A stretch of DNA of 64,000 nucleotides from Candidatus Latescibacterota bacterium. GTDB taxonomy: Bacteria; Latescibacterota; UBA2968; UBA8231. The stretch is taken from contig CBDFJF010000002.1 of the NCBI GenBank assembly GCA_965248265.1, forward strand, positions 2,784,001 through 2,848,000, given 5' to 3'. A program made the position numbers and the translations under genes. The notes under the pieces are model-generated. The model saw nothing but the letters and a program-made list of their open reading frames with translations. It made no database searches and was not told the origin of the DNA. The first letter of the stretch is position 1. Every line of letters begins with the position of its first letter. Positions 1 through 19,258 of this stretch are shown one piece after another.

Positions 1-1068
1 TTCGACGACGGCCGGAAAGTCCACGTCCACGGCGCGGTGTACCTGCTCCATTCGGAGGATGGCATATCGTGGCGCCGACTGCGCAGCGGCGTCGTGGTTC
101 CCTTCCGCTGCGACACGCAGAACCAGGTCCTCTACGATGCCGGCGCCGGCGCCTACGTTGCATATCTGCGCGGCGCGGCGGCCGCGGGTACGTGGGGCCC
201 GGGCTGGGGGAGAAGGCGGACGGTCGCCCGCCTGACTTCGCCCGAGCTCACGCAGTTGCCGTTCGACTTCCATGAGGACACGACGCTTCCCAGGAGCCCG
301 GTCGGGCTTTACGACCGGCTGCCGCCGCAGTGCGCGCCGGTGGTCATGGCGGGTGACGAGCGTGATCCGCCGGCCACGGACGTCTACACGCCCTGCGTCA
401 ACCCGTACGTATGGGCGGACGACGCCATCTTTGCCTTCCCATCCATGTTCCGCCAATACGGCGAGCAGGACAGCCATGGGCGGGACCATCGAGGGCAGAA
501 CCCGAAAGACGGCCCAGTGGAGGTGCAGCTCGCCGTGAGCCGCGACGGCGTCACATTCGAACGGTTCCGCACGCCCTACGTTGGTCTTGGTCTGATAGAC
601 GAGCCGCACCTCGGAGGATCAGTCTACATGGGGGTGGGCCTGATCCGGCGAGGCAACTTCGTCTACCAGTACTACACCGAGGCAGCGACCACCCACGGAA
701 CCCCTGACACGGACGTGCGCATCTGGCAGGCCAAACAGCGTCTGGACGGTTTCGTCTCGGTAGATGCAGGGCCGGAGGACGGTTGGTTTGTGACGCCGCC
801 GATCGAGTTCGCTGGGAGCCGTCTGCAGCTGAACATCGACTGCGGCGCGTTGGGCGAAGCGTGGGTCGAACTCCAGGACGAAACCGGGAAGCCGTTACCC
901 GGGTACACCTTCGAGGACGCCGTGTCCGTCGACCGGAACGGTGTCGCCCAGGAGGTCTGGTGGCGGGGAGGCCCGGACGTCGGCTCGCTGAGGGGCCGGC
1001 CTGTCAGGTTGCGCGTCACGATGCGTTCGTTGAAGCTCTACGCCTTCCAGTTCGTGGAGGCCGGCTGA
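1..1068 (+). CDS. GH32/GH43-like beta-propeller protein with C-terminal beta-sandwich (5'-partial)
   Basis: Frame is open from position 1. Asp-box-like SEDGISW and SRDGVTF, DTQN, and the C-terminal RLDGFVS...LYAFQF signature typical of this family. Confidence 0.6.
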   Translation, partial: FDDGRKVHVHGAVYLLHSEDGISWRRLRSGVVVPFRCDTQNQVLYDAGAGAYVAYLRGAAAAGTWGPGWGRRRTVARLTSPELTQLPFDFHEDTTLPRSPVGLYDRLPPQCAPVVMAGDERDPPATDVYTPCVNPYVWADDAIFAFPSMFRQYGEQDSHGRDHRGQNPKDGPVEVQLAVSRDGVTFERFRTPYVGLGLIDEPHLGGSVYMGVGLIRRGNFVYQYYTEAATTHGTPDTDVRIWQAKQRLDGFVSVDAGPEDGWFVTPPIEFAGSRLQLNIDCGALGEAWVELQDETGKPLPGYTFEDAVSVDRNGVAQEVWWRGGPDVGSLRGRPVRLRVTMRSLKLYAFQFVEAG

Positions 1069-1285
1069 AGGGGGCGCGCCGAGCGGCGATTCTTGAAAAG
1101 GCACGGCGGTCCGGTTGTCCGGTCGCTCATATGGCAGATTCCCGACGCACCGTCCGAGTGGAACTACACCATTCGACCGTCCCATGCGAACTGATAAAAT
1201 TCCACTAATTTCTGCGCAGCCCCCGTCCGTCTGCTTCAGTCACCGCTTCTGACCTCCGAAGTCCCGCCATCGCTAATCGGCGCGG

Positions 1286-2685
1286 TCACGGCCGGGGCCG
1301 CCGTTGCCACCGCGGGTAACTGATCGACTCTGTGGCGGGGTGACCTGTAAACTTCACTTTGAACGGTATCTCATATAGATGTACGGCATAAGGCTCGAAG
1401 GAGTCCTCAAACACCCCGTTCTCGACGGCCACCAGTCGATGCTCAGAACGCACCGAAGCACCATCTGGTGCCAATCCGCCATCAGGAACAGGAACCTTGA
1501 ACCGAGCTTTGATCGGCGAATCGAGGCCGTTGACCGCGATCAGGAAGTAGCCGCTGTCAGTTTGCCGCAGTGACAGGTGCAGTGCTGTATATCCAAGTTC
1601 TCCTGATCCGTCCCAGGTGGGCCTTCGACTGTCCTTGGACCCTTCGATGATTTCCCACACGAGCCCGGGCGCCTCCGGTGCCAAGAGGTAAGGCGCAAGA
1701 AGGCGCAATTCCGCCGTCAGGTCCGCCCACTGCGACCAGTACGCCGGATCTGACTGGTTGATCCACCAGTCGCGCCCCTCCTCACGATAGTGGAAGGCAA
1801 AGTAAGTAACGCCGCTGATGCCGCGCGTCACAGCCATATAGGTCATGCAACGAACCTCGACTATCGTCGGGGCACGATCGGGGATGTTACTTTTATGTAA
1901 AAAATCGAGGCCCTGCACGGGCGCCATCTGAATCCACATCCAACCCAGCTTGCCCGCCGCGCCCTTCATCACACTGTCGGAGTATTGGGCAACATGGTTC
2001 AAGGTAAATACAGGGACCGGGTAAACGTCACCCGAGTGGATGTCGGCGACATCGCGATAGTCCTGATAGTCCTTGAGATATCCGTAGCCCAGGTTGATGT
2101 ATACCGGGTGCAGCGGATCAAGCCGCTTGATCAGGTCATATGCCGGCTTGAACCTTTCGGGTGGCACCCTGTAGGGCAGGTCGACGTTAGGCACACCCTC
2201 GGGGCCAGAGACGCGGATATTGGGCTCATCCTCCAACTCCCACACCAGCAGTCCGGGGGCATCGCGACAGGCCATAACTATCTGCTCAAGCACTTCCAGG
2301 TCTTCCCACACACCATTGCCCACTGAAGCCATCGCGTACATGCCGTTGGCATAAGCCTCATCAATGTCGGAACGCCATGACTCCAGGTTTAGGCGGGGCG
2401 GGTGTTGCCCGTGGGTAATGGCGAGATTGAAGCCCTTCTCGCCAGCATCCGGCAGAGAATAATGCCCGTGCCCGACCCAGCCTATGCCCACCGGGAAAAA
2501 CGGTTTCCCGTTTACATAGAGGCCTTCTGTGCGAATCTCCACACGCTTTACCGGCGGGGGCGGACCCGCCTGCGTCGGCAATGCGTTCAGGAAGACGATC
2601 CCCACGAGCATCAAACAGCTTGCGCCATAGCTCCGAGACCACTTAGGGATGAGCCAGTGTTGGTGTGTTGAGGTGATTTTGCCAT
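1286..2685 (-). CDS. Secreted glycoside hydrolase-like TIM-barrel protein, apparent 1-nt frameshift in signal peptide
   Basis: Main ORF 1286-2614 (NGKPFFPVG, WELEDEPN, DVYPVP). A strong AAGGAG RBS precedes an ATG at 2685 whose frame (MAKSPQH...AQAV) stops at 2611; one extra T in the TTT run at 2613-2615 would join the two. Confidence 0.55.
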
Positions 2686-2757
2686 AGCCAGTATCTCCTT
2701 AAGTATCTGTCTAGCGGGGATTTCCCATATAACACGATGGTTAGACAAGCGGTAACA

Positions 2758-2763
2758 TGTCAA
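2758..2763 (-). promoter_or_regulatory. -35 box (TTGACA) of IS110 circle-junction promoter
   Basis: Perfect TTGACA 13 nt before the right-end CT core. Joining the ends gives a 13+2+2 = 17-nt spacer to TATAAT. Confidence 0.8.
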
Positions 2764-2794
2764 CGCCAATCGTGGGCAAATATCGAGTCTCCGT

Positions 2795-3985
2795 TCAGTT
2801 GAGGATAGGTGTGTAAGGTCTGTTGTTTTTAAGGACGCTGAAGACGACGTGGAGCATCTTGTTGGCGACATGGGTGAGTGCGACGAGGTGGTGCTTGCCG
2901 CGATCGATCTGCCGTTGATAGACCTGAGTGAAGAGCGGGTCATGGCTCTTGAAGACGGCGATCTCACAAGCCTGCATGACGGCGGTGCGCAGATAGCGGC
3001 TGCCACGTTTGGACATCCTGCCACGGCCGACTTGGTCGCCGCTGTCGAACTGCTTGACGTCGAGGCCAGCGGTGGCGACGAACTTGCGAGCACCGTGCTG
3101 ATCCTCGGGATGAAACACCGGCAAGATCTCGGCGAGGATCGTTGGCGCCCAGACGGGTCCAAGACCGGGAATGGATTGCAGGAGGGTCTGTTGCTCGCTC
3201 ACGAGATCCCGCAATTGTTCGTCGAGTTGCGCGATCTGATCGATGAGCAGGTTGACGCGCTCCATGACAAAGCGGATCTCCAGGGCCAGATGCTGCTGGC
3301 GATGCGTGAGCGCGAAGGAGTCCTTGGCAGCCGCCTTCAGGGCCTGGGCCTGATCCCGTCCGAAGGCCCCACGGCTGGCATCCTTCAACAGCCGCGTCAG
3401 GCGCCGAATGTCGACGCGGGCCAGCTCATCCGCAGTGGGAAATTGAGCCAGGACGGCGCGACTGGCAGCGCCGAACAGATCGGCGAAGTGCTGTCGGTAT
3501 TCGGGGAAGGCCAGGTCGAGGAGACTGACCAGATGGGTCTTCTCGGCCTTGACCGTGTGGGCGCACTGGAAGCGCAACCGGGTGAGGTCCCGTAGCTGAC
3601 GTACCTGGCGATCGGGAATAGCGCAGACCTTCAGGTGCGTTTCTCGCAGCAGGTGGGCGATCAACAGTGCATCGGCACTGTCGGTCTTGGTGCCACGGAT
3701 GGTGATATTACGCCGCGCTGCAACGACCAGGGGGTTGAGGACCTCGACCGAGTAGCCAGCCAGGATCAACACTTCGTACAGGACCATCCAGTAGTGCCCA
3801 GTGGCCTCCATGCCGACGCGGATGTCGGCGGCGAGTTGTTCGGTCTCGGCGAGACGTCGACACAACTGCTCAACCCCTTCGCGGGAGTGCTGCACGGCAA
3901 GATTTCGGAAGACGGCCTGGCCGTCCTGATCCAACAGTGTGGCGCGGTGACTGCGTTTCGCCACATCGATACCGAGAGTCCACAT
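2795..3985 (-). CDS. IS110 family transposase/recombinase (DEDD RuvC-like + Transposase_20 domains)
   Basis: GIDVAK, MEATGHYW, KTDSADA, SIPGLG, DSG (catalytic Ser), SKRGSRYLR; AAGGAG RBS before ATG at 3985. Confidence 0.95.
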   Translation of the reverse strand: MWTLGIDVAKRSHRATLLDQDGQAVFRNLAVQHSREGVEQLCRRLAETEQLAADIRVGMEATGHYWMVLYEVLILAGYSVEVLNPLVVAARRNITIRGTKTDSADALLIAHLLRETHLKVCAIPDRQVRQLRDLTRLRFQCAHTVKAEKTHLVSLLDLAFPEYRQHFADLFGAASRAVLAQFPTADELARVDIRRLTRLLKDASRGAFGRDQAQALKAAAKDSFALTHRQQHLALEIRFVMERVNLLIDQIAQLDEQLRDLVSEQQTLLQSIPGLGPVWAPTILAEILPVFHPEDQHGARKFVATAGLDVKQFDSGDQVGRGRMSKRGSRYLRTAVMQACEIAVFKSHDPLFTQVYQRQIDRGKHHLVALTHVANKMLHVVFSVLKNNRPYTPILN

Positions 3986-4009
3986 TGGACGAGCTCCTTG
4001 GTCAAGAGA

Positions 4010-4265
4010 CCGAAGCTGCCCACGATCGGGTAACACCAGCTGGCACATCCTCGTAGCCAGATCAGGGAACATGGGTCCCATCAAGCGGTAAGTGCATGTG
4101 CTGGCGCGTATGGCGTTCTATCCGAGAGGACCGAGCCTCGAGGCACGAATAGCCAACCCCAGCAGCTTCACTGATCTAGGATTGCCTCACTGCATCAGAA
4201 AAGCAAGCACTGAGTGCACGCAGCTGGTCGGTGCCCCGCAGGTCAGACCTACCCGAAGTGGTCTG
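4010..4265 (-). ncRNA. Putative IS110 bridge RNA
   Basis: Lies downstream of the -10 box. 5' hairpin CAGACC/GGTCTG, long-range stem GAAGCTGC/GCAGCTTC, two internal loops closed by TGGC/GCCA and GCACAT/ATGTGC. The second loop carries TTACCGCTTG (4082-4091, identical to right end 2746-2755) and TACGAG (4050-4055, complementary to left-end CTCGTA). RNA ends are approximate. Confidence 0.75.
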
Positions 4266-4270
4266 CACTT

Positions 4271-4276
4271 ATTATA
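4271..4276 (-). promoter_or_regulatory. -10 box (TATAAT) of IS110 circle-junction promoter
   Basis: Perfect TATAAT 2 nt inside the left-end CT core (CT-CG-TATAAT). Confidence 0.8.
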
Positions 4277-4280
4277 CGAG

Positions 4281-4312
4281 GATAAATAAGGGCCCGTTAT
4301 CGGTAGTCAAAC
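4281..4312 (-). mobile_element. IS91-like oriIS end interrupted by the IS110 (continues at 2739-2742)
   Basis: TTGACTACCGATAACGGGCCCTTAT closely matches TTGACCACCGATAATGGGCCCTTAT at 9888-9912. The empty site would read ...TTATC-CT-AACC. Confidence 0.7.
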
Positions 4313-4314
4313 CC

Positions 4315-4386
4315 CTCGAAGGCGTCGGCCTGCCGTCACGGGCACCGCCGATCGCCCCCGCACGCGCCAATCCCCAGCATGGTTAG
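4315..4386 (+). pseudogene. IS91-family transposase C-terminal fragment
   Basis: Translates LEGVGLPSRAPPIAPARANPQH, nearly identical to the C-terminus of the transposase at 16380-17879. Confidence 0.8.
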
Positions 4387-4560
4387 GCACGATAGGCAGT
4401 AATTATGGCTAGTTTGGATGCCTCAGGGTCTTGATGTCGCGTGGACCTGGCGCTTTTGTGAGCGGCGCATTTCGATTTTGCGCGCCAGCAACTGACACCA
4501 GGACAGACGATGCGGACAGGGCCCGTGGGACGATTCGAGCATGAGAGACCGCGGCTTCAA
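4381..4560 (-). mobile_element. IS91-like oriIS non-coding end module (no transposase)
   Basis: Ends in TATCGTGCCTAACC. 4381-4470 aligns by eye with 15199-15290 (ttatgg..agttt.gat, tgtcg.gtgga, ttt.tga.cggcg). Right boundary approximate. Confidence 0.65.
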
Positions 4561-4576
4561 CTCGGTCACGGTAGGC

Positions 4577-5662
4577 TCATCCCAAACTCAGCTCGCGATC
4601 GGCTAGGGGCAGGTCGATGCGGACATGTCCCCGGCGGTGGGATTCGCGCATGGCGATAGCGATTTCCAGCGCCTCGCGGCCGAACTCGCCGGGGCAGATG
4701 AGCTCCTCGCCAGCCTCGATGGAGCGGCAGACCCCTTCGATGGCGTCGACCATCGAGCTGCGAGGATGCCAGGGATTGGGAAACTGGTGTTGAACGGCTA
4801 CGCCACTGTCGGGATCCGTCTTCCACAGCTCGAACTGCGCGTGGGCGTTGCGGGAGACGATGCGGCCGTGCTCCCCGATGAACTCCAGCATCCACTGGCG
4901 GCCGCCGTCGATCTCGGACCGCGAGTTGAGCCAGGCCTGCACGCCATTGTCGTAGACGACGTGCCCCGAACCACACAGGTCGGAGTCAGCGGCCGCGGCC
5001 TCGTCGCTGTCCATGTGTCCGAAAACCCAGCGCGCCGGCGCGCCGGCGAAGAGACGCATGAGAGCGAGGCTGTGACTGCCGATGTTGGACAGGCTGGCGG
5101 AGCAGTGACAGACGATGGAGCGCAGCTCGCCGATGGCGCCGTCGGCGATGGCCTGCCTGGCATTCGTGTACCAGCTGTACCAGTTGAGGTGGCAGGCCAT
5201 GGCCAGGATGGTGTTCGTCTCGCGGCAGGCTTCTATCATGGCGTCAGCCTCGGCGAGGGTCCGGCACATCGGCTTGGTGGCGAAGATGGCGCGGACGCCG
5301 GCCTGTGCGAGGCCGATGACGACTTCGGCCCGTTCGTCCGGTCGCGTAGTGACGGCGACGAGATCTGGCTTCTCTATTTGAACCAAATCCCGGAAATCCA
5401 GATAGAGCGCCTCGACGTGCCAGCGGCGGCGGAAGTCGTCGAGCTTGGCCTGATCGATGTCGGCGCCAGCGACGAGCTCGGCACCACGAGCCTCGATGAT
5501 GGCCGGTGCGTGAGCCCAGGGCCACGGGTAGTGAGCCATGCCGACGTGCTCGTCGTCGATGATGCTGCCCATGCGGCCGCAGCCGACGACGGCGGCGCGG
5601 TAGGAGTGCTGTGGCCGCGACTGCTCCACGACCTTGAAGGCTTCGGCGCGAAATCGACTCAT
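4577..5662 (-). CDS. Gfo/Idh/MocA family oxidoreductase
   Basis: VVGCGRMG Rossmann motif; ATKPM variant of EKP. Confidence 0.85.
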   Translation of the reverse strand: MSRFRAEAFKVVEQSRPQHSYRAAVVGCGRMGSIIDDEHVGMAHYPWPWAHAPAIIEARGAELVAGADIDQAKLDDFRRRWHVEALYLDFRDLVQIEKPDLVAVTTRPDERAEVVIGLAQAGVRAIFATKPMCRTLAEADAMIEACRETNTILAMACHLNWYSWYTNARQAIADGAIGELRSIVCHCSASLSNIGSHSLALMRLFAGAPARWVFGHMDSDEAAAADSDLCGSGHVVYDNGVQAWLNSRSEIDGGRQWMLEFIGEHGRIVSRNAHAQFELWKTDPDSGVAVQHQFPNPWHPRSSMVDAIEGVCRSIEAGEELICPGEFGREALEIAIAMRESHRRGHVRIDLPLADRELSLG

Positions 5663-5682
5663 GGTGCGAGAATTTAGGACGA

Positions 5683-5813
5683 CGTATAGGACCGATAAGG
5701 GGCAATATCATTAGTCTATGACGGCAGAGGTGGAGTGTCGAGAGGGATTGTGAGCCAGGCGTAGAGCAGCGGATTGGTGCGGCGAGCGATGGGCGAGTGG
5801 ATTGGGCCTCCGA
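5683..5813 (-). repeat. IS91-like oriIS end, near-identical to 12052-12172
   Basis: ~120-bp direct repeat starting cgtataggaccgataaggggcaatatcatt. The minus strand ends GTCCTATAC, like IS91/ISCR oriIS (TTCCTATAC). Confidence 0.8.
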
Positions 5814-5997
5814 GTGCACCGACGGGTGCTTTGAATGGACCGTGGAAGTGCCGCCCGGCAGCACCGCGACCGCCACGTTACCGTACACCGGCGACGTTCG
5901 CACGTTGGAGCCGGGAAGACATGAGATCCAGGACGAAGAGGGAGGGAAGGGGTGATCTGCGCCCGATCACCGATCACCGATTACCGCTTTTCCGGGA

Positions 5998-7368
5998 TCA
6001 ACGGCTCCCTCGCAGGCGCAGCAATTTGCCGCCGCCGGGAAGCAGACTGACCGCCGCCCTTGCTCCGTTCGAGGCCCGGTGCCATACCCCGGTTCCGGCG
6101 TCAAACACCTCCATCGGTCCCGGACCGTTTACCGTCGTGTCGCGGGCCGCTTTGTAATCCAGGTTGACGACCAGCGCATGCGTCGGGACATGGTACGCAC
6201 CGAAGTAGCCGACCAGGATATCGTCGGTGTCGTCCACGTTAAAGGCCGCATCGGCAGGCAACGGCATTGTGCCCGGTGGAAGCTTGCCGAGATGATACAC
6301 CCCCAGAGACTTCAGTGGCTGCAGTACCCGGGCGATAGCGATGAATTCGGGATGGATCATCCGCAATTCTTTGCCCAGCGGCGTGAGCGGTGCGGCGGCG
6401 TCTTTGACAGCGCGTGCGGGGCTGAAGGTGTCGTCGTCGAATTCGGAGATGCCGCCCTTGAATTCGGAGTACGCCCAATAAACAAATTGCGACAGGCCCT
6501 GGCCGCCGTAAGCCAGCGTGGTGTATGCCAGGTAACGTCCTTCGTCGGGGGTCGGGACGCGGGAATGCTCTGACACGGAAACCGCCTGCACGACGTTCAG
6601 AAACGGTATGCCGTGTTTTACGGCGGCCTCACGGATGAGTTCCAGATTCAGAAAGTAGTCATCTTTGTCGTGGGTCTTCATGAACGGATAGTGGTCCCAG
6701 CTGAGCAGGTCCGGTTTGACCACATCGATGAACTGTCGTAAATGCTCGCGGTAGGCGGTTACCCTGTCGCCGGAGGTGCCGAGCGCGCCGGCGCTGGCAT
6801 AGGTCGGGAACAGGTTGACCATGGCCAGGTGCTTCGGATCGTGCTTGCGCAGGTATGCCACCATCTCGGCGATTTTAGGGAACTCGGAGGCGGTGGGCTC
6901 ATCGAATACGTACCAGGCGTACATGGCGGGATGATCCCTGGCCTTTTCGATGAGGGCGTCGAGCAGCGGTCTGCGTGCCGGATCGTCCAAGGCGCCGGCT
7001 TTGGAGAGCGGTAACCAGGGCTTGACCTGCTGGCCGGCCAGCATGGTGACGCGCAGCCCGTGGGCGTGGGCAACGTCGAGGTCTTCCATACTGCTGCCCC
7101 ACACCAGGGTGAAGCCGCCGTCGGCAAGCTTCTTTGCCATCCCGTGCGTCAACGGTCCCCAGCGGTCGTAACCGCCGCCGGGGCCGTGGTAGTACGCAGT
7201 GATGGGGGTGCCGACCACCCACTCGCTGCCCGCCGGGCGCCCCGGCGCGGGCATTCCGGTGACCGGCCCGGTGGTCATCGTCCGGCAGCCGGAGACGACG
7301 AGCATTACCAGGGCAGCGGCCGCGTATGAAATGATGGCGGGTCTGGATGGTGATGGTGATTGTCGCAT
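5998..7368 (-). CDS. Putative lipoprotein glycoside hydrolase-like protein (paralog of 13088-14500)
   Basis: Lipobox-like VSGC; HPAMYAWYVFDEP, VNLFPTYAS, KPDLLSWDHY. Start uncertain (ORF extends to 7461). Confidence 0.6.
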   Translation of the reverse strand: MRQSPSPSRPAIISYAAAALVMLVVSGCRTMTTGPVTGMPAPGRPAGSEWVVGTPITAYYHGPGGGYDRWGPLTHGMAKKLADGGFTLVWGSSMEDLDVAHAHGLRVTMLAGQQVKPWLPLSKAGALDDPARRPLLDALIEKARDHPAMYAWYVFDEPTASEFPKIAEMVAYLRKHDPKHLAMVNLFPTYASAGALGTSGDRVTAYREHLRQFIDVVKPDLLSWDHYPFMKTHDKDDYFLNLELIREAAVKHGIPFLNVVQAVSVSEHSRVPTPDEGRYLAYTTLAYGGQGLSQFVYWAYSEFKGGISEFDDDTFSPARAVKDAAAPLTPLGKELRMIHPEFIAIARVLQPLKSLGVYHLGKLPPGTMPLPADAAFNVDDTDDILVGYFGAYHVPTHALVVNLDYKAARDTTVNGPGPMEVFDAGTGVWHRASNGARAAVSLLPGGGKLLRLRGSR

Positions 7369-7597
7369 TTTATTAATTCTCCCGATTACGTTGGTTGGTT
7401 TCTCCCCGCGTATAGAAAGCTGCTCACTATCCCTGGGTGCACGACACAAAAATCGAGGCAAGTATGAATAGCTTGGTTTTCTGTTCGGTTTCGTGTCGTA
7501 GCCATCAACCTGGCGCCCCCACGACCTTGGTCGTGGGACGCAATGGTCAGTCAGCTATATACAAAAGCCGTAATCCCACCCCCACCGTCCCTTGCCA

Positions 7598-9409
7598 CTA
7601 CTTTGATACCGCCAGCTTGACCGACTTCCAGATGCCGCCGGCGAAGAGTCCGTTGCCGACACGAACGGCAATCGTATTGACCGCGCCCGGCTCAAGCTTG
7701 CCGGTGACATCGATCGGGAAGCGTTTGTCCCAGGCGAGATCCGGGTGTTCGTGGTGACCGCCCGCCGCCACGCCATTGATCCACACGGTGGCCGTCTCGT
7801 CGACGGCACCGAAGTAGAGATAGAGCTTGGCGCCTTCGGGAACCTGGACAGCGGGCACGTCCCAGGTGAGCCGATACCAGGCGTCTTTGCCATGATACCG
7901 CACGCCCTGTTCATCCCAGAATCTGCCGATGACGATGTCGCGCCAGCCGTCCGGGTGCGGGTCGGCATTAAACCAACCGCCCTTGATGCCTTCGCCGTCG
8001 ACGCCGGTGCGGAATTTCCATGCCTTGGGTAAGTCGACGAGTTCGAACTTGTCCATGAGATCGCCAAACGTCTCTTCGTCGCTGTAACCGGATTGTGCAG
8101 ATGCAGCAGCGGCGCCGCTACCCGCCGCGTCCTTGACTTTGCGGCCGAGGTAGGCGGCATCGTCGATGCGCCGCGGGTTCCGGACTCGTCGCAGGGCGTC
8201 ATTGTACGCACTCGGCAGTCTTTCGTTCTGCCACCATGACATTTTCTCGCTGGTCCACCATTTCGGTTGCTCGCTGTAGACCCAGACATACCGGTCGGCG
8301 ATATGGAGCCCGCAGAAAACCGAATACTCGAACTCCTCCGGGAGGAAATAGTTCTGCTCGATATCATCGGCGTTCCATGGTTGTACGCCGGATGTATTAT
8401 CCATCCAGAGGCCGAAGGCAAGGCGTCCGTGCTTGCTGTACTGCCGCGGATTGCCGACCGCCGGTGTGTAACTCTCCACCCGCCGCCGTGCATTGGCGTA
8501 CTCGGCGTGCGTCCGGAAGCCGTAGGCTTCTTCGAAACCGTCGACGATGACGGTGCCGCCGCTGGCGGCGTCGTACATGCCGTCAAGCAGGTCCTTCAAT
8601 AAGCCGTAGGAGAACTGGCTCAGGTCATAAGCCCCGGCACCGCGCAGACCGCTCAAACCGTAACCGTAGGTCATCATCAGCGTGATGTCGGGATGGAACT
8701 TCTGAAAGGCGCGCATCAACTCCTGCCCGCGCTGGCGGACCTTCTCCTGGTATTCGTCGAGGCTTTTCGTGTCGGCGTGGGTTTGTTCGCCATACCGAAA
8801 GATGTTGCCCTTGTATTGCTCGACGTCGAACATGATACCTTTGCAGCCGCCGTCCTTGGAAACGCGCCCGGCCACCGTCGCGTTCTGAACCACGACAGCG
8901 AACGCTTCGTCGTCGAACCAGTCGACCGTGCCGGGGCAGACGTTGAAGCGCATGAAGTTGTCGGTCATGTTCTTGAAGGTTGCGTGGGCGGCCTTGAGGT
9001 CCTCGACGTGCTGTGTGAAGGCATCGTACTCGAACCGGTCCGGTCCCCAGACATTCCAGTCGAAGCGGAGGACCCTGCCATCAACAGTGGCGGCGTCGGT
9101 GTGAAAAATGACGCCGTCGAACCCGAACTGATCCATGGTTGCCGCATGGGCCCGCATGAACGCCGGATCCGGTTCGTCCCAGCCCCACTCGATCACTTTC
9201 TTATCCGGGCCGATGCGGACCAGATCGTCCGATCGCGCCATCGAGGCGACTGCGATGGCAATGGCCAAACCGGTAAATACCATATAGCAGCACCGGTTCC
9301 CGAATTTCCGGTCTCGTCGGACGGGGCGGACAGGTCCGCCGGATCGGCTCGATCTTTCCCGAAACCTGCAACCCGACACGCTATGATCCCGCGTCTTCAT
9401 GGTTTTCAA
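7598..9409 (-). CDS. Secreted protein, TIM-barrel-like N-terminus plus C-terminal GH2-type sugar-binding jelly-roll
   Basis: Hydrophobic signal; KKVIEWGWDEP, GIMFDVEQY; C-terminal FGAVDETATVWINGV...GGIWKSVKL. Confidence 0.6.
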   Translation of the reverse strand: MKTMKTRDHSVSGCRFRERSSRSGGPVRPVRRDRKFGNRCCYMVFTGLAIAIAVASMARSDDLVRIGPDKKVIEWGWDEPDPAFMRAHAATMDQFGFDGVIFHTDAATVDGRVLRFDWNVWGPDRFEYDAFTQHVEDLKAAHATFKNMTDNFMRFNVCPGTVDWFDDEAFAVVVQNATVAGRVSKDGGCKGIMFDVEQYKGNIFRYGEQTHADTKSLDEYQEKVRQRGQELMRAFQKFHPDITLMMTYGYGLSGLRGAGAYDLSQFSYGLLKDLLDGMYDAASGGTVIVDGFEEAYGFRTHAEYANARRRVESYTPAVGNPRQYSKHGRLAFGLWMDNTSGVQPWNADDIEQNYFLPEEFEYSVFCGLHIADRYVWVYSEQPKWWTSEKMSWWQNERLPSAYNDALRRVRNPRRIDDAAYLGRKVKDAAGSGAAAASAQSGYSDEETFGDLMDKFELVDLPKAWKFRTGVDGEGIKGGWFNADPHPDGWRDIVIGRFWDEQGVRYHGKDAWYRLTWDVPAVQVPEGAKLYLYFGAVDETATVWINGVAAGGHHEHPDLAWDKRFPIDVTGKLEPGAVNTIAVRVGNGLFAGGIWKSVKLAVSK

Positions 9410-9877
9410 TCTCCTTTCGCCGCTACCAGTTTTACCGATTTCCAGATGCCGCCGTAATTGGTGCGGTCGCGTACGCGCACTGTGAGGATATTGCTCTCGC
9501 CGATCTTCACTGCATCCCCGAGCGGGATCTCGAAGCGCTTATCCCAGCCAATGTCACCGATGACATGCTCGCCGATCTGCCGGCCGTTCAGGTAGACCCA
9601 GGCAGATTCATCGACGGCGCCGAACGAAAGCGAAAGGTCCCGCCCCTTTGTTGCCGCCGGCATTTCGAACTCGACGCGATACCAGGCAATGCCGTCGTAC
9701 TGATGACCCTGCGGCTCTCACCACTCGCCGATCTTGATCGGCTGCCACTGCGTCTTATCGACAAAGACGCCGCCCCAGTCCTGCTGCCGCCCTTGATCGT
9801 TGAAGTCAGGCCGGAAGATCCAGACTTTCGGCAGATCGGCAATAAAATCGTGCGTCGCCCATAGCTCCGCGAAGAAG
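9406..9877 (-). pseudogene. 5'-truncated GH2-type sugar-binding domain with in-frame TGA
   Basis: DLPKVWIFRPD...IGEW*EPQGHQYDGIAWYR...FGAVDESAWVYLNG...GGIWKSVKL. TGA at 9718-9720; truncated by the oriIS at 9878. Confidence 0.7.
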
Positions 9878-10234
9878 GATAAGAACGATAAGGGCCCATT
9901 ATCGGTGGTCAATATCTATTCGGGGGCTGTGTCGAATGAAAATCTGAACTTTTTGATGGATGGGGGATGGTTACATTGGCTTATGGGGGCTTGTTTTGGC
10001 GTGGATTCAGGCCCCGACTTGGTTTCGATGGCTGTTACAGACCCGCAAGGTCGATTCAGGCGCATCGATCCCATCGGATCAGACGGCGTAATCGAACTCA
10101 GACTGCTGGGAAAGCCTTGCCGGTGCGATGGGTGGAGGGCGAGCCGGCAGACCGACATCCTCGAGGTAAGACCGAATCGAAGCGGGATCCGTCAGGGCGG
10201 CAACGATCCTCATTTGCCCACCGCAGTCGCACTC
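9878..10234 (-). mobile_element. IS91-like remnant: oriIS end plus transposase C-terminus
   Basis: 10079-10234 encodes ECDCGGQMRIVAALTDPASIRSYLEDVGLPARPPPIAPAR...EFDYAV*. The end GTTCTTATCC lies ~200 bp past the stop, with hairpin CGATAA/TTATCG. Confidence 0.8.
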
Positions 10235-10418
10235 AGAAGAGGAGGATCGTCACCATGGCTACCACGTACCCCTCAACCTCCGATCCTGGACTCACGATAA
10301 TAGCCGTTATAACATCTATCCATATGGGAGTAGATCGCACATGACCTGTATCAGCTGCACAAGCCAAACGGCGCCATCCCCATCGACGACACCATGCGGG
10401 CGATGCACCATGCCGTTA

Positions 10419-10543
10419 CGCATCATCGACGCCGACCAGGTCTCCTTCGCACTGAAAACACCCTGGTCAGATGGCACCACCCACCTCCTGCTCTCGCCCT
10501 TCGAACTGCTCGAAAAACTGGCCGCCCTCTTGCCGCCACCACG
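10419..10543 (+). pseudogene. IS91-family transposase internal fragment
   Basis: RIIDADQVSFALKTPWSDGTTHLLLSPFELLEKLAALLPPPR. Confidence 0.8.
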
Positions 10544-10655
10544 CCCTTCCTACATGGAGAGCTGGCCGGGCTGCGAGCCCTCCCAGGAGCTGCGGGCACG
10601 GGTGGCGGATGACGAGGCGAGAGCGCGCCTGCTGCGTGAACCGTACTATCATTGA
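10544..10655 (+). pseudogene. C-terminal remnant of a probable PhyH-family gene
   Basis: PSYMESW...RARLLREPYYH* fused directly to the IS91 fragment, upstream of an intact PhyH gene. Confidence 0.35.
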
Positions 10656-10674
10656 CCAAACAGAGGCTGTTTCC

Positions 10675-11826
10675 ATGACCGACACCACCGCAGACGAACC
10701 TGCAGAGAAACCGTACCGCGCACCCGCTTTTGCCGATGCGCTGCCCGAGCTCGACGCGCCTGGAGCCACGCCCGAGAGGCTGGCTTTTCTCGAGGAGCAC
10801 GGCTTTCTCATTCTCACTGATTTCGTTGGCAGTCCGTGGATCGAGAGACTCCGCGAGGCCGGCCGCCGCGTCACCGAAGCCTGCGCGCCCCAGCACGGCT
10901 ACAGCAAGCTCGATTCCTCCAAGGGATACGTGCACCGCGCCAGGGATGACGAGCCGTCGGCCATCCGGGGCCTCGTTCATCCCGCCTTTGGCGAGCCGGT
11001 TTTTTCCGAGTTCCACGGCTCGGACGAGTTCCTCGGCTTCGTCGATTCCTGGTGCGGGCTGCAGCCCGAGGACACGGCCATGGGCGGCATGCTGCTGTGG
11101 TGCAACCCGCGCAAGAGCGAGATGGGACCCAGCTGGCACCGGGACACGACCTGGTGGGGTACGGGAAAACCCTACTTCTCTCAGAGCACCGAGAAAGAAG
11201 GTCCCGAGGCTTACTCCGAAGAAGCAGAGAGAAAACGCTGGGAGGAAATCCGCGCTGAAAACTCCAGGACCGTCTACGAGCGCAGCGGAGTGAGCCTGTT
11301 CCTCGCCCTCGTCGACGACGAGTGCCACGAGGTCATCCCGGGCAGCCACAACCGCTGGCGCACGCCGTTCGAGCACGACGTGCTCCTGCCCCAGGCCATG
11401 AAGGACCAGGGCGTGCCGCACACGCCGAGCTGGAACAAGAAGGACCCGCTGCCAAACCAGGTGGCCATCGGCCTCAAACCTGGGGAAGCCCTCATCCGCA
11501 TAGGCTCGAACATCCACACGGGGCACACGGTCCCCGAGCGCGAGCGCAACACCCTGAGCATCGGTTGGGGCAAGTGGCAGGGGCCGCCCGAAGAGCCGGC
11601 GGTGGCGGATGCGCGCATGGCGTGGCAGCTCGGCCCGGCCGTGCGGGACGCCCTGCCCTACGAGTGGATGAAAACGGCCTGGGACCGCTGGGCGGCGGGG
11701 CAGAAGCTGGGAGACACCCTCGAAGACCGGTATGCGGCCTTCGACATCCGCCAGATCAAAGCCGGCAACGTCGTGGGATGGCGAGGCGAGCTGGAGCGTC
11801 AGGCAGCGGCAGCCGGAGAAGCCTGA
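10675..11826 (+). CDS. Phytanoyl-CoA dioxygenase (PhyH) family Fe/2OG protein
   Basis: FLEEHGFLIL, WHRD, VIPGSH, IHTG facial-triad pattern. Confidence 0.8.
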   Translation: MTDTTADEPAEKPYRAPAFADALPELDAPGATPERLAFLEEHGFLILTDFVGSPWIERLREAGRRVTEACAPQHGYSKLDSSKGYVHRARDDEPSAIRGLVHPAFGEPVFSEFHGSDEFLGFVDSWCGLQPEDTAMGGMLLWCNPRKSEMGPSWHRDTTWWGTGKPYFSQSTEKEGPEAYSEEAERKRWEEIRAENSRTVYERSGVSLFLALVDDECHEVIPGSHNRWRTPFEHDVLLPQAMKDQGVPHTPSWNKKDPLPNQVAIGLKPGEALIRIGSNIHTGHTVPERERNTLSIGWGKWQGPPEEPAVADARMAWQLGPAVRDALPYEWMKTAWDRWAAGQKLGDTLEDRYAAFDIRQIKAGNVVGWRGELERQAAAAGEA

Positions 11827-12051
11827 CAGCCCTTTCAGACCATCAGCGATCCTGCAGGTGGGTGATGGGACCGGTGTCCCCGAAACCGTGGGCCATGGCG
11901 CGCTCTAGCATGGCCCGTCGGCGGGGACCCGCTGTGTGGGTGAGGTTGTCGCTGTAGAACCGGCCCCAGGCTTTCGTGTCGCCTTCCAAGAACCCGATCA
12001 CCCAGTCGTAGTACTCGGAGCTCTGCTCTCTCGTCGTGTACGTATAGGACA

Positions 12052-12484
12052 CGTATAGGACCGATAAGGGGCAATATCATTTGTCTATGACAGCAGAGGT
12101 GGAGTGTCGAGAGGGATTGTGAGCCAGGCGCAGCGGAGCGGATTGGTGCAGCGAGCGATGGGAGTGGATTGGCGCCTGTCGAACGGATCACGGATGCTGG
12201 TGTGCCCTTTTCGGGCCTCAACAGTGCACTGGTGGGCGCACCGGTCCGTTCGGATCAGGCCAGTCGTGTTCGATCAGGCTGCCAAATCGAACTCGGGTTG
12301 CGGGTCACGTCGTGGTGGCGCGATGGGTGGCGGCCGCGCCGGCAGGCCGACGCCTTCCAGGTAGGACCGGATCGAGGCGGGCTCGGTCAGGGCGGCTACG
12401 ATTTTCATGTGCCCGCCGCAGTCGGGGCATTCGCTGATATCGATCTGGAACACGCGCGCTAGCAGTTGACACCAGGACAGGGAG
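12052..12484 (-). mobile_element. IS91-like remnant: oriIS end plus transposase C-terminus
   Basis: 12274-12484 encodes LSWCQLLARVFQIDISECPDCGGHMKIVAALTEP...EFDLAA*; GTCCTATACG end ~220 bp downstream. Confidence 0.85.
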
Positions 12485-12814
12485 TGGTCATTTACGACCT
12501 GCAAGGCGGGCAATATTTACGCCGATGGCCACCTCGAGATAGCTGATCAGGATCGACTATACGAAGGGGGGTTTAGAGGATCGTACGTCGGATACGACGG
12601 TCCGGAAAGTTATGTGTGGGTACCGTTTTTTGGGCCTTAGTTAACAGGCGCCGAGTCTCACAAGATCGCGATCGCTATCGCCCGCGCTTAGGACCGGTAA
12701 CCTGCGGCAACGAATTCAGCTCCTCATAGTCAGTCAGTGCTATGGGAGGCTTTTTTGTGGCAAGATGCGGCTCTTTCCCCCGCACTAACCGCCAGCATTG
12801 TCCGAAACAATTGC

Positions 12815-12905
12815 GACAATCATGGCAGACGGATTCGCGGAGATATTGATAGTCCAAAGTCACCTGGTCAAGGAGCCCTACCCCCCCTACAGTGTGGAAT
12901 TTTGG
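12815..12905 (+). repeat. Direct repeat copy 1 (copy 2 at 14860-14970)
   Basis: Shared core atag[t/a]ccaaagtcacc[t/c]ggtcaagg[a/t]gccctaccccc...cagtg[t/g]ggaa. Confidence 0.7.
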
Positions 12906-13087
12906 TGGACTTTCAGACTGTTACAAGCGCGGATATTGACGAACAAGCGTGGACAGGAGGGAAGATAGGGAAATGGCGAAAAGCCTGGCCAAATAAGGCT
13001 TCATCGTAAGTGTTCGGTGTCAGGAGTCAAGTGCTCAGTCCAATCGGTCCAATCCGAGCGATGCGAACCGAGCAACTGAACTCCGGA

Positions 13088-14500
13088 CTATTCCTGCAAC
13101 CCCGCCAGGCGCATAAGTTTTCCCCCGCCGCGCAACAGGCTTACCTGCGCCCGCGACCCACCCGACGCTGCACTCCAAGTTCGCGACGTCGCGTTGAATA
13201 CCTCCAGCAGCTCCGGGCCGATTACCGTTGTGGTTATCGCCCGCGTGTAGTCCAGGTTTACCGCCAGTACATGGGTCGGGTTGTCGTTGGCACCGAAATA
13301 TCCCAAAAGGATGCCCCTCTCCCGTTTTGCGGACACCGGGGGATCCACAGTAAATTCAGCGTCGGCCGGTAGCCCGACCGCGCCAGAGGGGACGGCGCCC
13401 AGATGATACGCAGCCAGGGACGTCAGCGGTTGCACCTCCAGACCAACGGCAACAAACTCGGGGTGGATTTCTTGTAGGGCCTGGCCCAGCGGGGTCAGGG
13501 TGCCATTGACATTGACGACACCGCCCTCGAACAGCGGATCGGAAACAGGTATGTAAACGAACTGAAAGAGGCCTTGGCCGCCGTAGGCTAATGTGGTGTA
13601 GGCCAGGAATCTGCCCTCGGCACCGTTGGGTATGCGGTGGGTTGGAGCCACAGAGCAAGCCTGTACCACGTTGACGAAGGGGATCCCGCCGTATAATGCT
13701 GCCTCGCGCGCGAGCGCCAAATTCATAAAGTACGTATTGCCCGCATGCAGGTTTGCGCCTACTTCATCGATAGCCCCCTCCGTGTAGAGGTTGTAATGAT
13801 CGTAACTGATCAGGTCCGGCTTGACGACGTCGACGAACTGGCGGAGATACTCCCGGTAGGCGGTCTCCGTATCGTTTGGATGACCCGGCCCGGAGACGCC
13901 AAGCGCCATAGCACTGGCATACGTAGGGAACAGATTTATGAGGACCATGTGGTTGGGATCACGCTCACGGATGTGGGCCACCAACCTACCCAGAGCCGGG
14001 TTCTCGCCGCCCCAGATTTCGTCGGCTAGGTAATAGGCGTACATCGCCGGATGGTTCTTCACCCGCTCGATCATCGCATCGAGTCCCGCCCTCCGTGCCG
14101 GGTCATCCAAATAGCCGGGGATCGCCCCTTGGTCGCCGAGTTCTTGGGGAAAGAAAAGCGCACGGTGCCCCTGAGCGTGAGCAGCGTCGAGATCATCCTC
14201 ACCCTGGCACCAGACCAGGTTGAAGCCCTCATCATTTAGTCTTGCAGCGACCCCGGGCGTCATTAATCCGAATTGCCCTCCCGCCCCAGGGCCTTGGTAA
14301 TAGCCAAGGATGGGGTCACCGATCTCCCAATTGCTGCCCATGGGTCGCCCACGCGCGGCACCTGAGGCGGACATGTCCGATGTTGCGCATGCTACCGCTC
14401 CCAGCAGTATGAGGCCCAAGACCCTGTACAACCAAATTATGCCAGGGTGCCGAAGCTTAGATACTAATTCTTTATTGCTTATTGGCTTAATTTCACTCAT
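13088..14500 (-). CDS. Putative lipoprotein glycoside hydrolase-like protein (paralog of 5998-7368)
   Basis: Lipobox-like AVAC; HPAMYAYYLADE, INLFPTYAS, KPDLISYDHY, LAYTTLAYGGQGL. Confidence 0.6.
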   Translation of the reverse strand: MSEIKPISNKELVSKLRHPGIIWLYRVLGLILLGAVACATSDMSASGAARGRPMGSNWEIGDPILGYYQGPGAGGQFGLMTPGVAARLNDEGFNLVWCQGEDDLDAAHAQGHRALFFPQELGDQGAIPGYLDDPARRAGLDAMIERVKNHPAMYAYYLADEIWGGENPALGRLVAHIRERDPNHMVLINLFPTYASAMALGVSGPGHPNDTETAYREYLRQFVDVVKPDLISYDHYNLYTEGAIDEVGANLHAGNTYFMNLALAREAALYGGIPFVNVVQACSVAPTHRIPNGAEGRFLAYTTLAYGGQGLFQFVYIPVSDPLFEGGVVNVNGTLTPLGQALQEIHPEFVAVGLEVQPLTSLAAYHLGAVPSGAVGLPADAEFTVDPPVSAKRERGILLGYFGANDNPTHVLAVNLDYTRAITTTVIGPELLEVFNATSRTWSAASGGSRAQVSLLRGGGKLMRLAGLQE

Positions 14501-14859
14501 TCTTCTGATTTTCTTTCTTTGTTCTGCCTTGGCTCGGGGTTCAAGTGGAATACGGAATGGGACGCTTTCCTTTGAGGTGATACGACCCCCTGCAGTTGCT
14601 TGTCAAGTTATTTATTCTTTGGCCCGGCGAGCCCAGGGCTGCCAGCTTGGGCTTATGAGCAAACTCATTTGACGGGGACTTGTAGGCGCCGCCAAATGCC
14701 TTGACAAACTCGGCAAATTCACCCTCCGATATTTTTCAAATTCGATGCGAAGTTCCCGGTAGGTCATGACGAGCAATCCCCGCGACAAAATAAGCGTCGT
14801 TAACGCATCAAGACCGACAGCGGACTATGCTAGATTGGCATAACCATGCTATACCTGTG

Positions 14860-14970
14860 GACAATGACGACAGTCGTGGCGCCGGATGCGCAGAGGTATT
14901 AATAGACCAAAGTCACCCGGTCAAGGTGCCCTACCCCCTACCCCATCCAGCAGTGGGGAACTTTTGAAAG
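14860..14970 (+). repeat. Direct repeat copy 2
   Basis: See 12815-12905. Confidence 0.7.
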
Positions 14971-15080
14971 AAACAAATGGGGCGTCAGGTGATGACCGTT
15001 GCCGTCCGTCAGGTAATAAATTGACGCACGCTACGAAGTAGGGGGTGGAAACCGGTGTGCACCTTTCCCAATCGGGGACC

Positions 15081-15198
15081 ATGAACCTGCTCTCGCGTGC
15101 ATTGCTGACGTTGGCTGGCCTTTCCGGCGCCCTCGCTCCCGCGCAGCCCCAAAGTCCTGGCGACTTGGAACGGGAGGTCGCGGCTCTTCTCGCCGAGA
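15081..15198 (+). pseudogene. Signal-peptide-bearing gene start truncated by oriIS
   Basis: MNLLSRALLTLAGLSGALAPAQ...EVAALLAE, then runs into gtataggacgaa. Confidence 0.4.
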
Positions 15199-15538
15199 GT
15201 ATAGGACGAATTAGTGGCGTTATGGTGAGTTTAGATCTGCACGAGGCCTGGTGTCGAGTGGATCTTGGGATCTTTCTGAACGGCGGAATGCGGGGTTGAG
15301 GCTTTAGACGGGCGTGCCGAAGAGGAGGAATCCACGGCTGAGATAGGTTTCTTACCGTTTTTGCCACCCGGATGATCAGTTGGGGCGCAACAAACCAAGC
15401 GCGCTGTGATCAGGCCGCGTATTCGAACTCAGACTGCTGATCGTGCCTTGCCGGAGCAATTGGCGGAGGCCTTGCTGGCAGGCCGACCCCCTCGAGGTAT
15501 GACCGAATCGAGGCGGGGTCGGTCAGCGCAGCAACAAT
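15199..15538 (-). mobile_element. IS91-like remnant: oriIS end plus transposase C-terminus
   Basis: 15410-15538 encodes IVAALTDPASIRSYLEGVGLPARPPPIAPARHDQQSEFEYAA*; TTCGTCCTATAC end ~210 bp downstream. Confidence 0.8.
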
Positions 15539-15539
15539 G

Positions 15540-16156
15540 TACCGGTGCGGCAATGGGTGCTGAGTCTGCCGTATGAGATCCGCTATCGCCTGGCCTGGGA
15601 CGGCGAGTTGGTCGGCGCCCTGCTGGGCGTTTTTCTGCGCGTCGTCTACGGCTGGTATCGACGTCAGGCACGAAAGCAGGGATACGAACACAGTCGCTGC
15701 GGCTCGGTGACGTTCGTGCAGTGATTCGGGTCATCTTTGAATCTCAATCCTCACGTCCATGTCCTCATGATCGACGGCGTCTACGGCAATGGCGAGGCGG
15801 GTCCGGAGTTCGTGGCCGCACCGACCCTTAGCGATGATGATGTGCAACAGATCGTCGAGACCACGGCGCGACGCGTTGTGCGCCTGCTGCAACGCCGTGG
15901 CCTGCTGGAAGAGGGCCATGTCGATCCGCTGTGGGAGCAGGAGCCCCTGCTGGCGATGATCACGGCGGCTTCGATCCAGGGCCAGGTGGCTACCGGCGAG
16001 CGCGCCGGTCAACCTGTGCGCCGACGCTTGCTCGATCCTCAAGAGGGCATCCGCACCGGCCCGCTGTGCTTCGCTTCGCGTGGATTCTCTTTGCATGCGG
16101 CCACCCGCGTGCCGGCCACCGACCGCACTCGCCTGGAAAGACTGTGCCGCTACGTT
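15540..16156 (+). pseudogene. IS91-family transposase internal fragment with nonsense codon
   Basis: VPVRQWVLSLPYEIRY...FVQ*FGSSLNLNPHVH...LERLCRYV; TGA at 15722-15724. Confidence 0.85.
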
Positions 16157-16220
16157 GGAGTCTCTCTTCTTGGCCAACAACCCTTTGCTGAGGGGAGCGC
16201 TGCCGTTGGATTTGGCGGGC

Positions 16221-17879: not shown

Positions 17880-18030
17880 CTGCTACTCGCAAAATGGCTC
17901 GGGTGTCAGAATTCTTCGGGCATGGCATGCCGCCGCATAAGCGAAACTGCGCTTGCCTACGGCGAATCAACCGATGGCGGATGCACGTGGGGTAAGCCGA
18001 TCGTGATCGGCGTTTGGGGAAGATGGCAGG

Positions 18031-18237
18031 ATGAGGGGTACAGTTGAAGATGCCATCAAGGTATCTCGGGGGTTGGAGGAGCTGGATTACCTATGGATCG
18101 AGGAGCCTTTGCAGGAGTTCGACATTCGAGATACCATGGAGATCAGGGACGGTTATATGTACGTGCCACAGACGCCCGGGTTGGGACGAGAGATAGACTG
18201 GGAGCAGATTGAGGCCAGGACCATTATGAGGATATGA
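18031..18237 (+). pseudogene. Mandelate racemase/enolase superfamily remnant
   Basis: LWIEEPL joined directly to the C-terminal RDGYMYVPQTPGLG; the N-terminus and middle are missing. Confidence 0.65.
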
Positions 18238-18240
18238 AAT

Positions 18241-19245: not shown

Positions 19246-19258
19246 TGACAGCCCTCCT

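Follow-up and report, generated by a model that had tools for sequence, protein, structure and literature searches.

An IS110-group insertion sequence with a predicted bridge RNA apparently aimed at IS91-family oriIS ends in a Candidatus Latescibacterota genome

To which sequence is an IS110-group element directed when it lies among the remains of rolling-circle transposons of the IS91 family? The question is raised by an insertion sequence (IS) on the minus strand, at positions 2743-4280, of a 64,000-nucleotide stretch of a Candidatus Latescibacterota bacterium (assembly GCA_965248265.1, contig CBDFJF010000002.1, positions 2,784,001 to 2,848,000 of the forward strand), which we call the window. 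An initial annotation made from the letters had proposed that the predicted bridge RNA of this element is aimed at IS91-type oriIS ends. Our data support this proposal, through the insertion sites of sister copies, two complete nine-base guide matches in relatives, an exact permutation test, a genome-wide enrichment of the predicted target in oriIS ends, and a terminal motif shared with ISCR1, ISVsa3 and IS91. We estimate at roughly 0.85 the probability that the element belongs to an IS110 lineage whose bridge RNA target loops are written against IS91-family oriIS ends, and which inserts at a CT four bases inside the terminus.

The window element is an intact IS110-group insertion sequence encoding a DEDD/serine bridge recombinase, and it measures 1,538 bp when the CT core is counted at each junction (2743-2744 and 4279-4280). 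The span given earlier, 2739-4395, located the element correctly and was too wide at both sides, since its start took in the target bases AACC and its end took in a neighbouring free oriIS-like end. Both junctions are bridged by contigs from public runs (X1-X4, all from one sample); the same contigs, which are informative only where they cover the locus, contained no empty site, no circle junction and no RNA ends. The core of the empty site is a single CT, as in free homologous ends, and the element has neither terminal inverted repeats nor a longer duplication. The intact recombinase gene (2795-3985, minus strand, 396 aa) is preceded by a non-coding left end of about 290 nt and followed by about 50 nt. 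Its product has the domain order of the IS110 family, with a DEDD (RuvC-like) domain at the N terminus and a Tnp domain at the C terminus (Pfam DEDD_Tnp_IS110, PF01548, E 2.6e-40, covering profile positions 1-155 of 155; Transposase_20, PF02371, E 2.1e-17), and a search of the PDB matched it to the solved structures of the IS621 transposase (8wt6, E 5.5e-18) and ISCro4 (9t56, E 8.7e-19). A -35 hexamer TTGACA can be read in the right end (2758-2763, minus strand) and a -10 hexamer TATAAT in the left end (4271-4276, minus strand); together they would form a TTGACA-N17-TATAAT promoter, assembled only on a circle joined at CT.

The predicted bridge RNA core lies at 4012-4170 on the minus strand, as do all the guides described below. 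Left ends were aligned from 12 copies in the own and related genomes, and the consensus fold obtained by RNAalifold on 14 homologous cores has an outer stem around two loop regions, a target-binding and a donor-binding loop, with 42 pairs, six of which show compensatory changes, and a folding energy of -42.45 kcal/mol. An Rfam scan of window positions 1-20000 at E<=1 matched no family to this predicted RNA. The first loop is variable among copies and comprises nine bases 5' of a small conserved hairpin plus a hexamer 3' of it, and the second loop is nearly invariant among the aligned copies. The strings that the initial annotation had located in the first loop, ATTCGTGCCT at 4141-4150 and GGATAG at 4118-4123, are both present as claimed. 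From these we take TTCGTGC-CT (4141-4149, seven nucleotides plus the core) as the predicted left target guide, with the register taken from the relatives G012 and G007, and GGATAG (4118-4123, reverse complement CT-ATCC) as the predicted right target guide, the homologous hexamer matching at 6/6 positions in three other copies. This guide assignment and register agree with the scheme described for IS621 in the available part of PMC11208160, in which a nine-base left target guide is in the top-strand sense, the right guide pairs with the top strand and the core is included. The IS621-like register is fixed because the left guides of G012 and G007 match their flanks at nine of nine positions and stop exactly there; for the same reason a donor-like register, with the left guide ending before the core, was dropped. 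In the second loop, the predicted left donor guide CTTACCGCTTG (4082-4092) has ten contiguous bases equal to the right-end terminus GTTACCGCTTGT-CT, and the predicted right donor guide TACGAG (4050-4055, reverse complement CT-CGTA) covers the core and the first four left-end bases, CT-CGTATAAT. By sequence match, the donor loop is thus complementary to the two ends of the element itself.

The site that the element interrupts can be rebuilt from its flanks. Removal of the element gives ...CCGATAACGGGCCCTTATTTATC-CT-AACCATCG, i.e. ...CCGATAACGGGCCCTTATTTATC-CT-AACC, which aligns with other oriIS ends in the window; the rebuilt site bears out the earlier claim that excision restores an oriIS-like end, and it is an IS91-family oriIS terminus. 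The left part of this occupied end, ...TTTGACTACCGATAACGGGCCCTTATTTATC, was recognised by alignment with the other ends and lies at 4281-4325 (minus strand), while its last four bases, AACC, at 2739-2742 (minus strand), are one of the six terminal four-base sequences seen in free ends of the genome; the restored site reads -CT-AACC and then ATCG. A free oriIS-like end, ...CTGCCTATCGTGC-CT-AACC, stands beside it at 4381-4436 on the minus strand (E 1.1e-5 against the nucleotide profile described below). The oriIS-like strings listed before are all found on the minus strand, TATCGTGCCTAACC at 4381-4394, TATCGGTCCTATAC at 5684-5697 and 12053-12066, ATTCGTCCTATAC near 15199 and TATCGTTCTTATCC at 9877-9890 (earlier given as 9878). 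When the pattern TATCGNNCCTAWMC is searched with at most one mismatch, the window contains five matches where 0.48 are expected, and none of 100 shuffles reaches five; one of the five (18492) lacks the look of an oriIS, and the end near 15199 is missed by the pattern and was seen by eye.

The window also carries an intact IS91-family Y2 transposase gene (16380-17879, minus strand; Pfam Y2_Tnp E 6.5e-26, Zn_Tnp_IS91 E 2.3e-19), whose protein shares 38-43% identity with plasmid-borne transposases annotated as IS91, ISCR1 and ISVsa3. The profile places its oriIS end, ...TTTATCCTCA-CT-ATGC, near 16219-16280 on the same strand, about 165 nt downstream of the gene. The annotated plasmid elements (ISCR1, ISVsa3 and an IS91-family gene) have ...TTTAT/TTTGA-N-TTCCTATAC at 225-243 nt past the transposase stop in all three cases examined, their terminal sequences being ...GGTTTATACTTCCTATAC, ...GCGTTTATTCTTCCTATAC and ...GCGTTTGAACTTCCTATAC. 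Because the motif follows the stop in 3/3 of these annotated records, the IS91/ISCR terminal motif that the initial annotation had given is confirmed.

A nucleotide profile of the oriIS was made from nine seed ends, three of which were rebuilt empty sites, and its search of the 7.3-Mb genome gave 59 ends at E<=0.01, which together cover about 3.5 kb. For 17 of the 59, the 900 nt upstream contain a Y2 remnant on the same strand, at a distance of 165-330 nt. Forty-nine free ends could be parsed, the ten left out being three occupied ends and seven with deviating termini. At the insertion position these 49 have CT (41) or TT (8), and their last four bases are ATAC (15), ATCC (14), ATGC (7), AACC (7), AAGC (4) or ATTC (2); the oriIS ends of this genome finish ...TTAT-N5-C-CT-AT(A/C)C. 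The bases that follow begin with GT in 24 ends (GTTC four times and GTCC four times) and differ in the other 25; as stated in the accessible part of PMC13181058, IS91-family elements insert beside GTTC, CTTG or GTCC, and this tetranucleotide abuts the oriIS. An ATAA-N6-7-TTAT palindrome lies 5' of the left flank in 35/49 ends; it is short, and its role in targeting is putative.

If the target loop is aimed at such ends, other copies should be found in them, and the flanks of homologous copies, which the initial annotation had named as the place to look, do contain oriIS ends. Besides the window copy, the own genome contains the full-length copies c2 and c3, at 84.7-84.8% identity to it, an internally deleted one (f6/f5) and several end fragments. 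All five left junctions in this genome (the window copy w, c2, c3, f6 and L128) are oriIS-like by eye, with ...TTAT-N5-6 before the core, which reads TT in f6 and CT in the other four; three of the five reach the profile at E<=0.01, two of those three having been seeds. Related copies were sought in 76 genomes of the same family, 12 of which gave any match, the own genome included; the order-level search comprised the same 76 and yielded no new copies. A metagenome contig carries a recombinase 78% identical to that of the window copy. The lineage is hence found in one bacterial family and one metagenome. Outside the own genome, five of six distinct left junctions, from related genomes and the metagenome contig, are oriIS-like by eye, and a C-terminal Y2 remnant lies 220-270 nt upstream of three of the six. 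Distinct right junctions number 19 (eight in the own genome, 11 elsewhere), and 16 of these begin A[AT][ACG]C, a form that covers six of the 256 possible four-base sequences. All oriIS cases share one insertion point, the CT that lies four bases from the IS91 terminus, and one orientation, with the IS110 left end toward the IS91 body. Relatives at 55-67% recombinase identity (L037, L038 and L132) occupy unrelated sites, ...C-CT-TTCC/TTCT, which are fitted by their own guides; they were set aside as evidence on oriIS. Since these relatives sit in unrelated sites, the oriIS specificity belongs to the guides of this lineage and not to the protein family.

The guides themselves follow the sites. 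In G012 the left flank CATTTTAC-CT agrees with the guide GATTTTAC-CT at nine of nine positions, and so does the flank TATTTGCC-CT with the guide GATTTGCC-CT in G007, while the right guides are complete (6/6) in c2 (GCTTAG versus CT-AAGC), f6 (GGATAG versus CT-ATCC) and G011a (GTATAG versus CT-ATAC). Over nine copies, the non-core positions agree in 40/63 cases on the left and 30/36 on the right when each guide is paired with its own site, and cross-pairs give on average 2.5/7 on the left and 2.5/4 on the right (shuffling p = 7e-5 and 7e-4, respectively). The specificity of the guide-target pairing was examined by an exact permutation test of seven pairs, in which the true pairing beat shuffled ones: only 3/5,040 permutations reach the observed total. 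This test leaves out one of c2 and c3, and also f6, because a guide region shorter by 3 nt and a TT left junction make its register ambiguous. Different copies thus carry different guides fitting different oriIS sub-types. The copies c2 and c3 (C2:2703918-2705453 and C2:2724257-2725792) have three differences in 1,536 bases and both have intact genes of 396 aa, a near-identity that points to recent transposition within the genome. They occupy different sub-types, ATAACCA-CT-AAGC and ATCCTCA-CT-ATGC, so that one guide has recently served two sites. The guide of the window copy has its own set of fitting ends: with CT fixed and at most two mismatches, its predicted 13-mer occurs at 85 sites in the genome, six of which coincide with oriIS ends that the profile defines on the correct strand (expected number about 0.0003), and two more are oriIS-like by eye. 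One of the two joint-best sites is GTCGTGC-CT-ATCC, followed by GTTC. The window guide is therefore written for an oriIS sub-type that is present as several free copies, though the copy itself sits elsewhere.

Several observations weigh against the view that this lineage is guided to oriIS ends. The profile hits at the three rebuilt sites are circular, as those sites were seeds, and the match at the occupied site of the window (C2:2788272) is likewise partly by construction. The left flank of f6 is not reported by the profile and that of c2 only at E 0.62; outside the own genome a single locus (L014/L015/L123) gives a profile hit, and the left flank of G011c is not convincingly oriIS-like. Three right junctions are also unlike an oriIS (L020, identical to L131, L023 and L121), the last being a junction of right end and left end in G010. 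The permutation p-values overstate independence, because the compared copies are kin. The guide shared by c2 and c3 can be fitted to the c3 site only by letting one of its bases bulge out, and a genome-wide search with the 13-mer predicted from it met no oriIS end within three mismatches; for this guide a shifted register (ATCCTCC versus ATCCTCC-CT-type ends) or a one-base bulge was considered. The subterminal palindrome is short, the mean best stem of 4.1 bp against 3.3 bp in shuffles being a weak signal. Most of the targets are solo or decayed ends, since for 42 of the 59 no Y2 remnant could be detected in the 900 nt upstream. Finally, the window guide predicts TTCGTGC-CT-ATCC, and the occupied sequence ATTTATC-CT-AACC matches this at only 2/7 non-core positions on the left and 3/4 on the right, a partial fit of which the initial annotation had itself warned.

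This last point leads to the alternative that survives best, and which we find somewhat favoured for the copy concerned: the guide that the window copy now carries did not direct it to its present site, either because the insertion was off-target (by half-match or assisted by structure) or because the guide mutated after insertion. The match to the neighbouring end at 4381 would then be uninformative about this insertion event. The free end about 100 bp away (4381-4394, ATCGTGC-CT-AACC) indeed matches the window left guide at 6/7 positions plus the core, which is far better than the 2/7 at the occupied site, and the shared guide of c2 and c3 is found at two oriIS sub-types. Half-match insertion has been reported for IS621, and a stem-loop of the target as second specificity determinant for ISPpu10, each in a preprint of which part was available. 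On the other side stands the low mismatch tolerance reported for IS621 by Durrant et al. in the accessible part of PMC11208160. Off-target insertion or guide drift concerns one copy only, and it is compatible with the explanation at the level of the lineage.

Within that explanation, in which the lineage is guided to oriIS ends, a sequence of events may be proposed. The bridge RNA, whose target loops are written against the last ~13 bases of the oriIS (the 3' side of the short subterminal palindrome, the CT and the final A(T/A)NC), would be made from the promoter assembled on the excised circle. Recombination would follow the mechanism of IS621, and the window copy may have arrived at a site that fits it poorly through mismatch-tolerant or half-match insertion, or else its guide may have changed afterwards. 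As insertion takes place at the CT four bases inside the terminus, it separates the nick site and its tetranucleotide from the remainder of the origin by 1.5 kb; in IS91 itself the functional right end is the last 82 bp plus the tetranucleotide, according to the portion of PMC13181058 at hand. With the origin split 4 nt from the nick site, the IS91 end would be inactivated, and judging from position this outcome is likely; the alternative is that the IS110 element is co-mobilised with the IS91 element. It is tempting to go one step further and regard the lineage as a natural RNA-guided antagonist of IS91 elements, with guides that diversify along with the oriIS sub-types, insertions that silence or ride along, IS91 ends that land in turn in IS110 copies, and an arms race between guide and origin. 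We consider this larger picture speculative and rather unlikely.

Less probable still, though worth weighing, is that the targets are short repeats like repetitive extragenic palindromes (REPs) or miniature inverted-repeat transposable elements (MITEs), derived from IS91 only historically, and that the IS110 element uses an abundant safe-harbour repeat with no functional relation to IS91. The ends that lack a Y2 remnant would suit such repeats, the oriIS-like ends are numerous and clustered, and several lie just upstream of host genes, as the end at 5684, which stops 22 nt before the ATG at 5662; IS110 elements are moreover known to target REPs (IS621, ISPpu9/10), as far as the available sources describe them. 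However, Y2 remnants do precede 17 of the 59 ends by 165-330 nt, an end of this type follows the intact Y2 gene of the window, annotated ISCR1, ISVsa3 and IS91 elements finish in the same terminal motif, and GT-type tetranucleotides come after 24/49 ends. The idea also concerns the selective reason for the targeting and not what the target sequence is. That the association is a mere by-product of a region rich in mobile elements, where IS110 copies and IS91 ends pile up without sequence-directed insertion, has hardly any probability left, for although w, c2, c3, f6/f5 and many oriIS ends do lie within 2.65-2.80 Mb of contig C2, the use of the same CT, four bases from the terminus and in one orientation, in every oriIS case contradicts it, as do the same junction position in other genomes and the metagenome contig, the specific guide-target pairing in the permutation test, and the small share of the genome that the 59 ends occupy.

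The copies of the IS110 lineage offered some further observations. A stretch of 3.9 kb, in which a truncated IS110 copy occupies an oriIS end accompanied by a Y2 remnant, is 99.7% identical between two genomes placed in different genera (L014 on C53 of G009 and L015 on C1 of G011); it was counted once, and the sharing could reflect transfer, contamination or close kinship. At L121:1378 (C2 of G010, near 3780211) the right-end terminus is joined via a single CT to the left end, TTTACCGCTTGT-CT-CGTATAAT, and this head-to-tail chromosomal junction is either a tandem copy or an integrated junction. In run X4, a single contig (30 letters) continues from the left junction at window position 4283 into another oriIS-type flank, ...AATGGTGCTTTATCGATC-CT, which hints that the sampled population holds a near-identical copy inserted at another place.

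The IS91-type remains around the element are likewise complex. Between the occupied and the free (4381) oriIS-like ends, which stand in tandem, lies a 64-nt inverted piece of the 3' part of a Y2 gene (4314-4377), whose complementarity to three further copies within the window is 72-80%; recombinase-mediated inversion was rejected as its origin, since a CT core lacks palindromic symmetry and the two ends point the same way. Near the intact Y2 gene, an inverted repeat of 617 nt with 85% complementarity is formed by 15539-16155 and 16927-17543, and a partial Y2 copy (aa 112-336), pointing the other way, directly adjoins the oriIS end of the intact IS91-like element, an arrangement suggestive of nested IS91 insertions. 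An IS91-type element seems to have inserted into an IS110 at C2:1778109, upstream of fragment f8, where an oriIS-like end ...AAAAGGGCCTTTATCTTCACTATAC and then GT border directly on internal sequence of an IS110 relative (70% identical) that breaks off at about position 468; a similar joint occurs at window position 3134 in a single public-run contig. Solo or truncated right ends of the IS91 type are strewn across the genome, mainly at 2.2-2.8 Mb of C2, together with numerous short C-terminal Y2 fragments (47 tblastn segments). As to neighbouring genes, the end at 5684-5697 precedes a GFO/IDH/MocA oxidoreductase gene (4577-5662, minus strand, start codon at 5662), and the occupied end is about 55 nt upstream of the next gene; oriIS regions of ISCR1 carry outward promoters according to the part of PMC6218425 available. 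Two paralogous genes without a Pfam match (5998-7461 and 13088-14500) lie in DNA segments 71-77% identical, each adjoining an oriIS-like end, and the 112-nt stretch 5682-5793 is repeated at 12051-12162 with 95% identity.

The mechanism by which this element would select its sites is known, since it is that of the bridge RNA, and the target class appears to be new. With IS621 and ISCro4 the window element shares sequence homology, the DEDD and Tnp domains, a left-end non-coding RNA with two internal loops (here predicted), the CT core and the division of the -35 and -10 hexamers between the right and left ends; so far as the sources at hand describe those systems, it also shares the 9-nt left target guide in the top-strand sense and a right guide complementary to the core and right flank. 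It differs in its target, which is the IS91-family oriIS terminus and not a REP, as known here from sequence alone, in a left donor guide that matches over ten contiguous bases and stops one base before the core, and in the 3-5 left-flank mismatches carried by several resident copies of the lineage.

A parallel may be found in the IS1111 group, for which an element targeting the terminal sequence of another transposon family was reportedly described by Partridge and Hall in 2003. As far as the available text goes, an IS1111-group element aimed at the terminal recognition sequence of another transposon has the same kind of target, and its insertion is expected to cripple the end. The IS1111 elements differ in having a seekRNA downstream of the gene and subterminal inverted repeats, and the victim there is a DDE transposon of the Tn3 family, whereas the window lineage strikes a rolling-circle HUH/Y2 element in the origin from which it replicates. 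The IS1111-attC group (ISKpn4, ISPst6) and the REP-targeting ISPa11, ISPpu9 and ISPpu10 resemble the window lineage in their short, repeated and partly palindromic targets. In the accessible description of ISPpu10, a stem-loop just 5' of the paired bases determines specificity, and the oriIS ends have ATAA-N6-7-TTAT in that place. Unlike the targets of those elements, that of the window lineage comes from another family of mobile elements, and its palindrome is short. The natural targets of bridge RNAs named in the parts of the literature available are REPs, attC sites and Tn21 inverted repeats; a literature search returned no IS110-family element aimed at an IS91/ISCR oriIS, and the per-guide natural-target list of Durrant et al., which lay outside the search, might hold one.

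Overall, the lineage would exemplify how, in nature, one transposon family directs a programmable RNA at a functional end of another. With several guides, several origin sub-types and the twins c2 and c3, it also provides a natural series for the study of mismatch tolerance and guide evolution. Relatives of IS91 and ISCR elements move resistance and catabolic genes by one-ended transposition, and a guide set that recognises origins of the ...TTCCTATAC type is therefore of interest for the restraint of IS91/ISCR elements. If the lineage does act as an antagonist of IS91 elements, its presence may be of benefit to the bacterium that hosts it.

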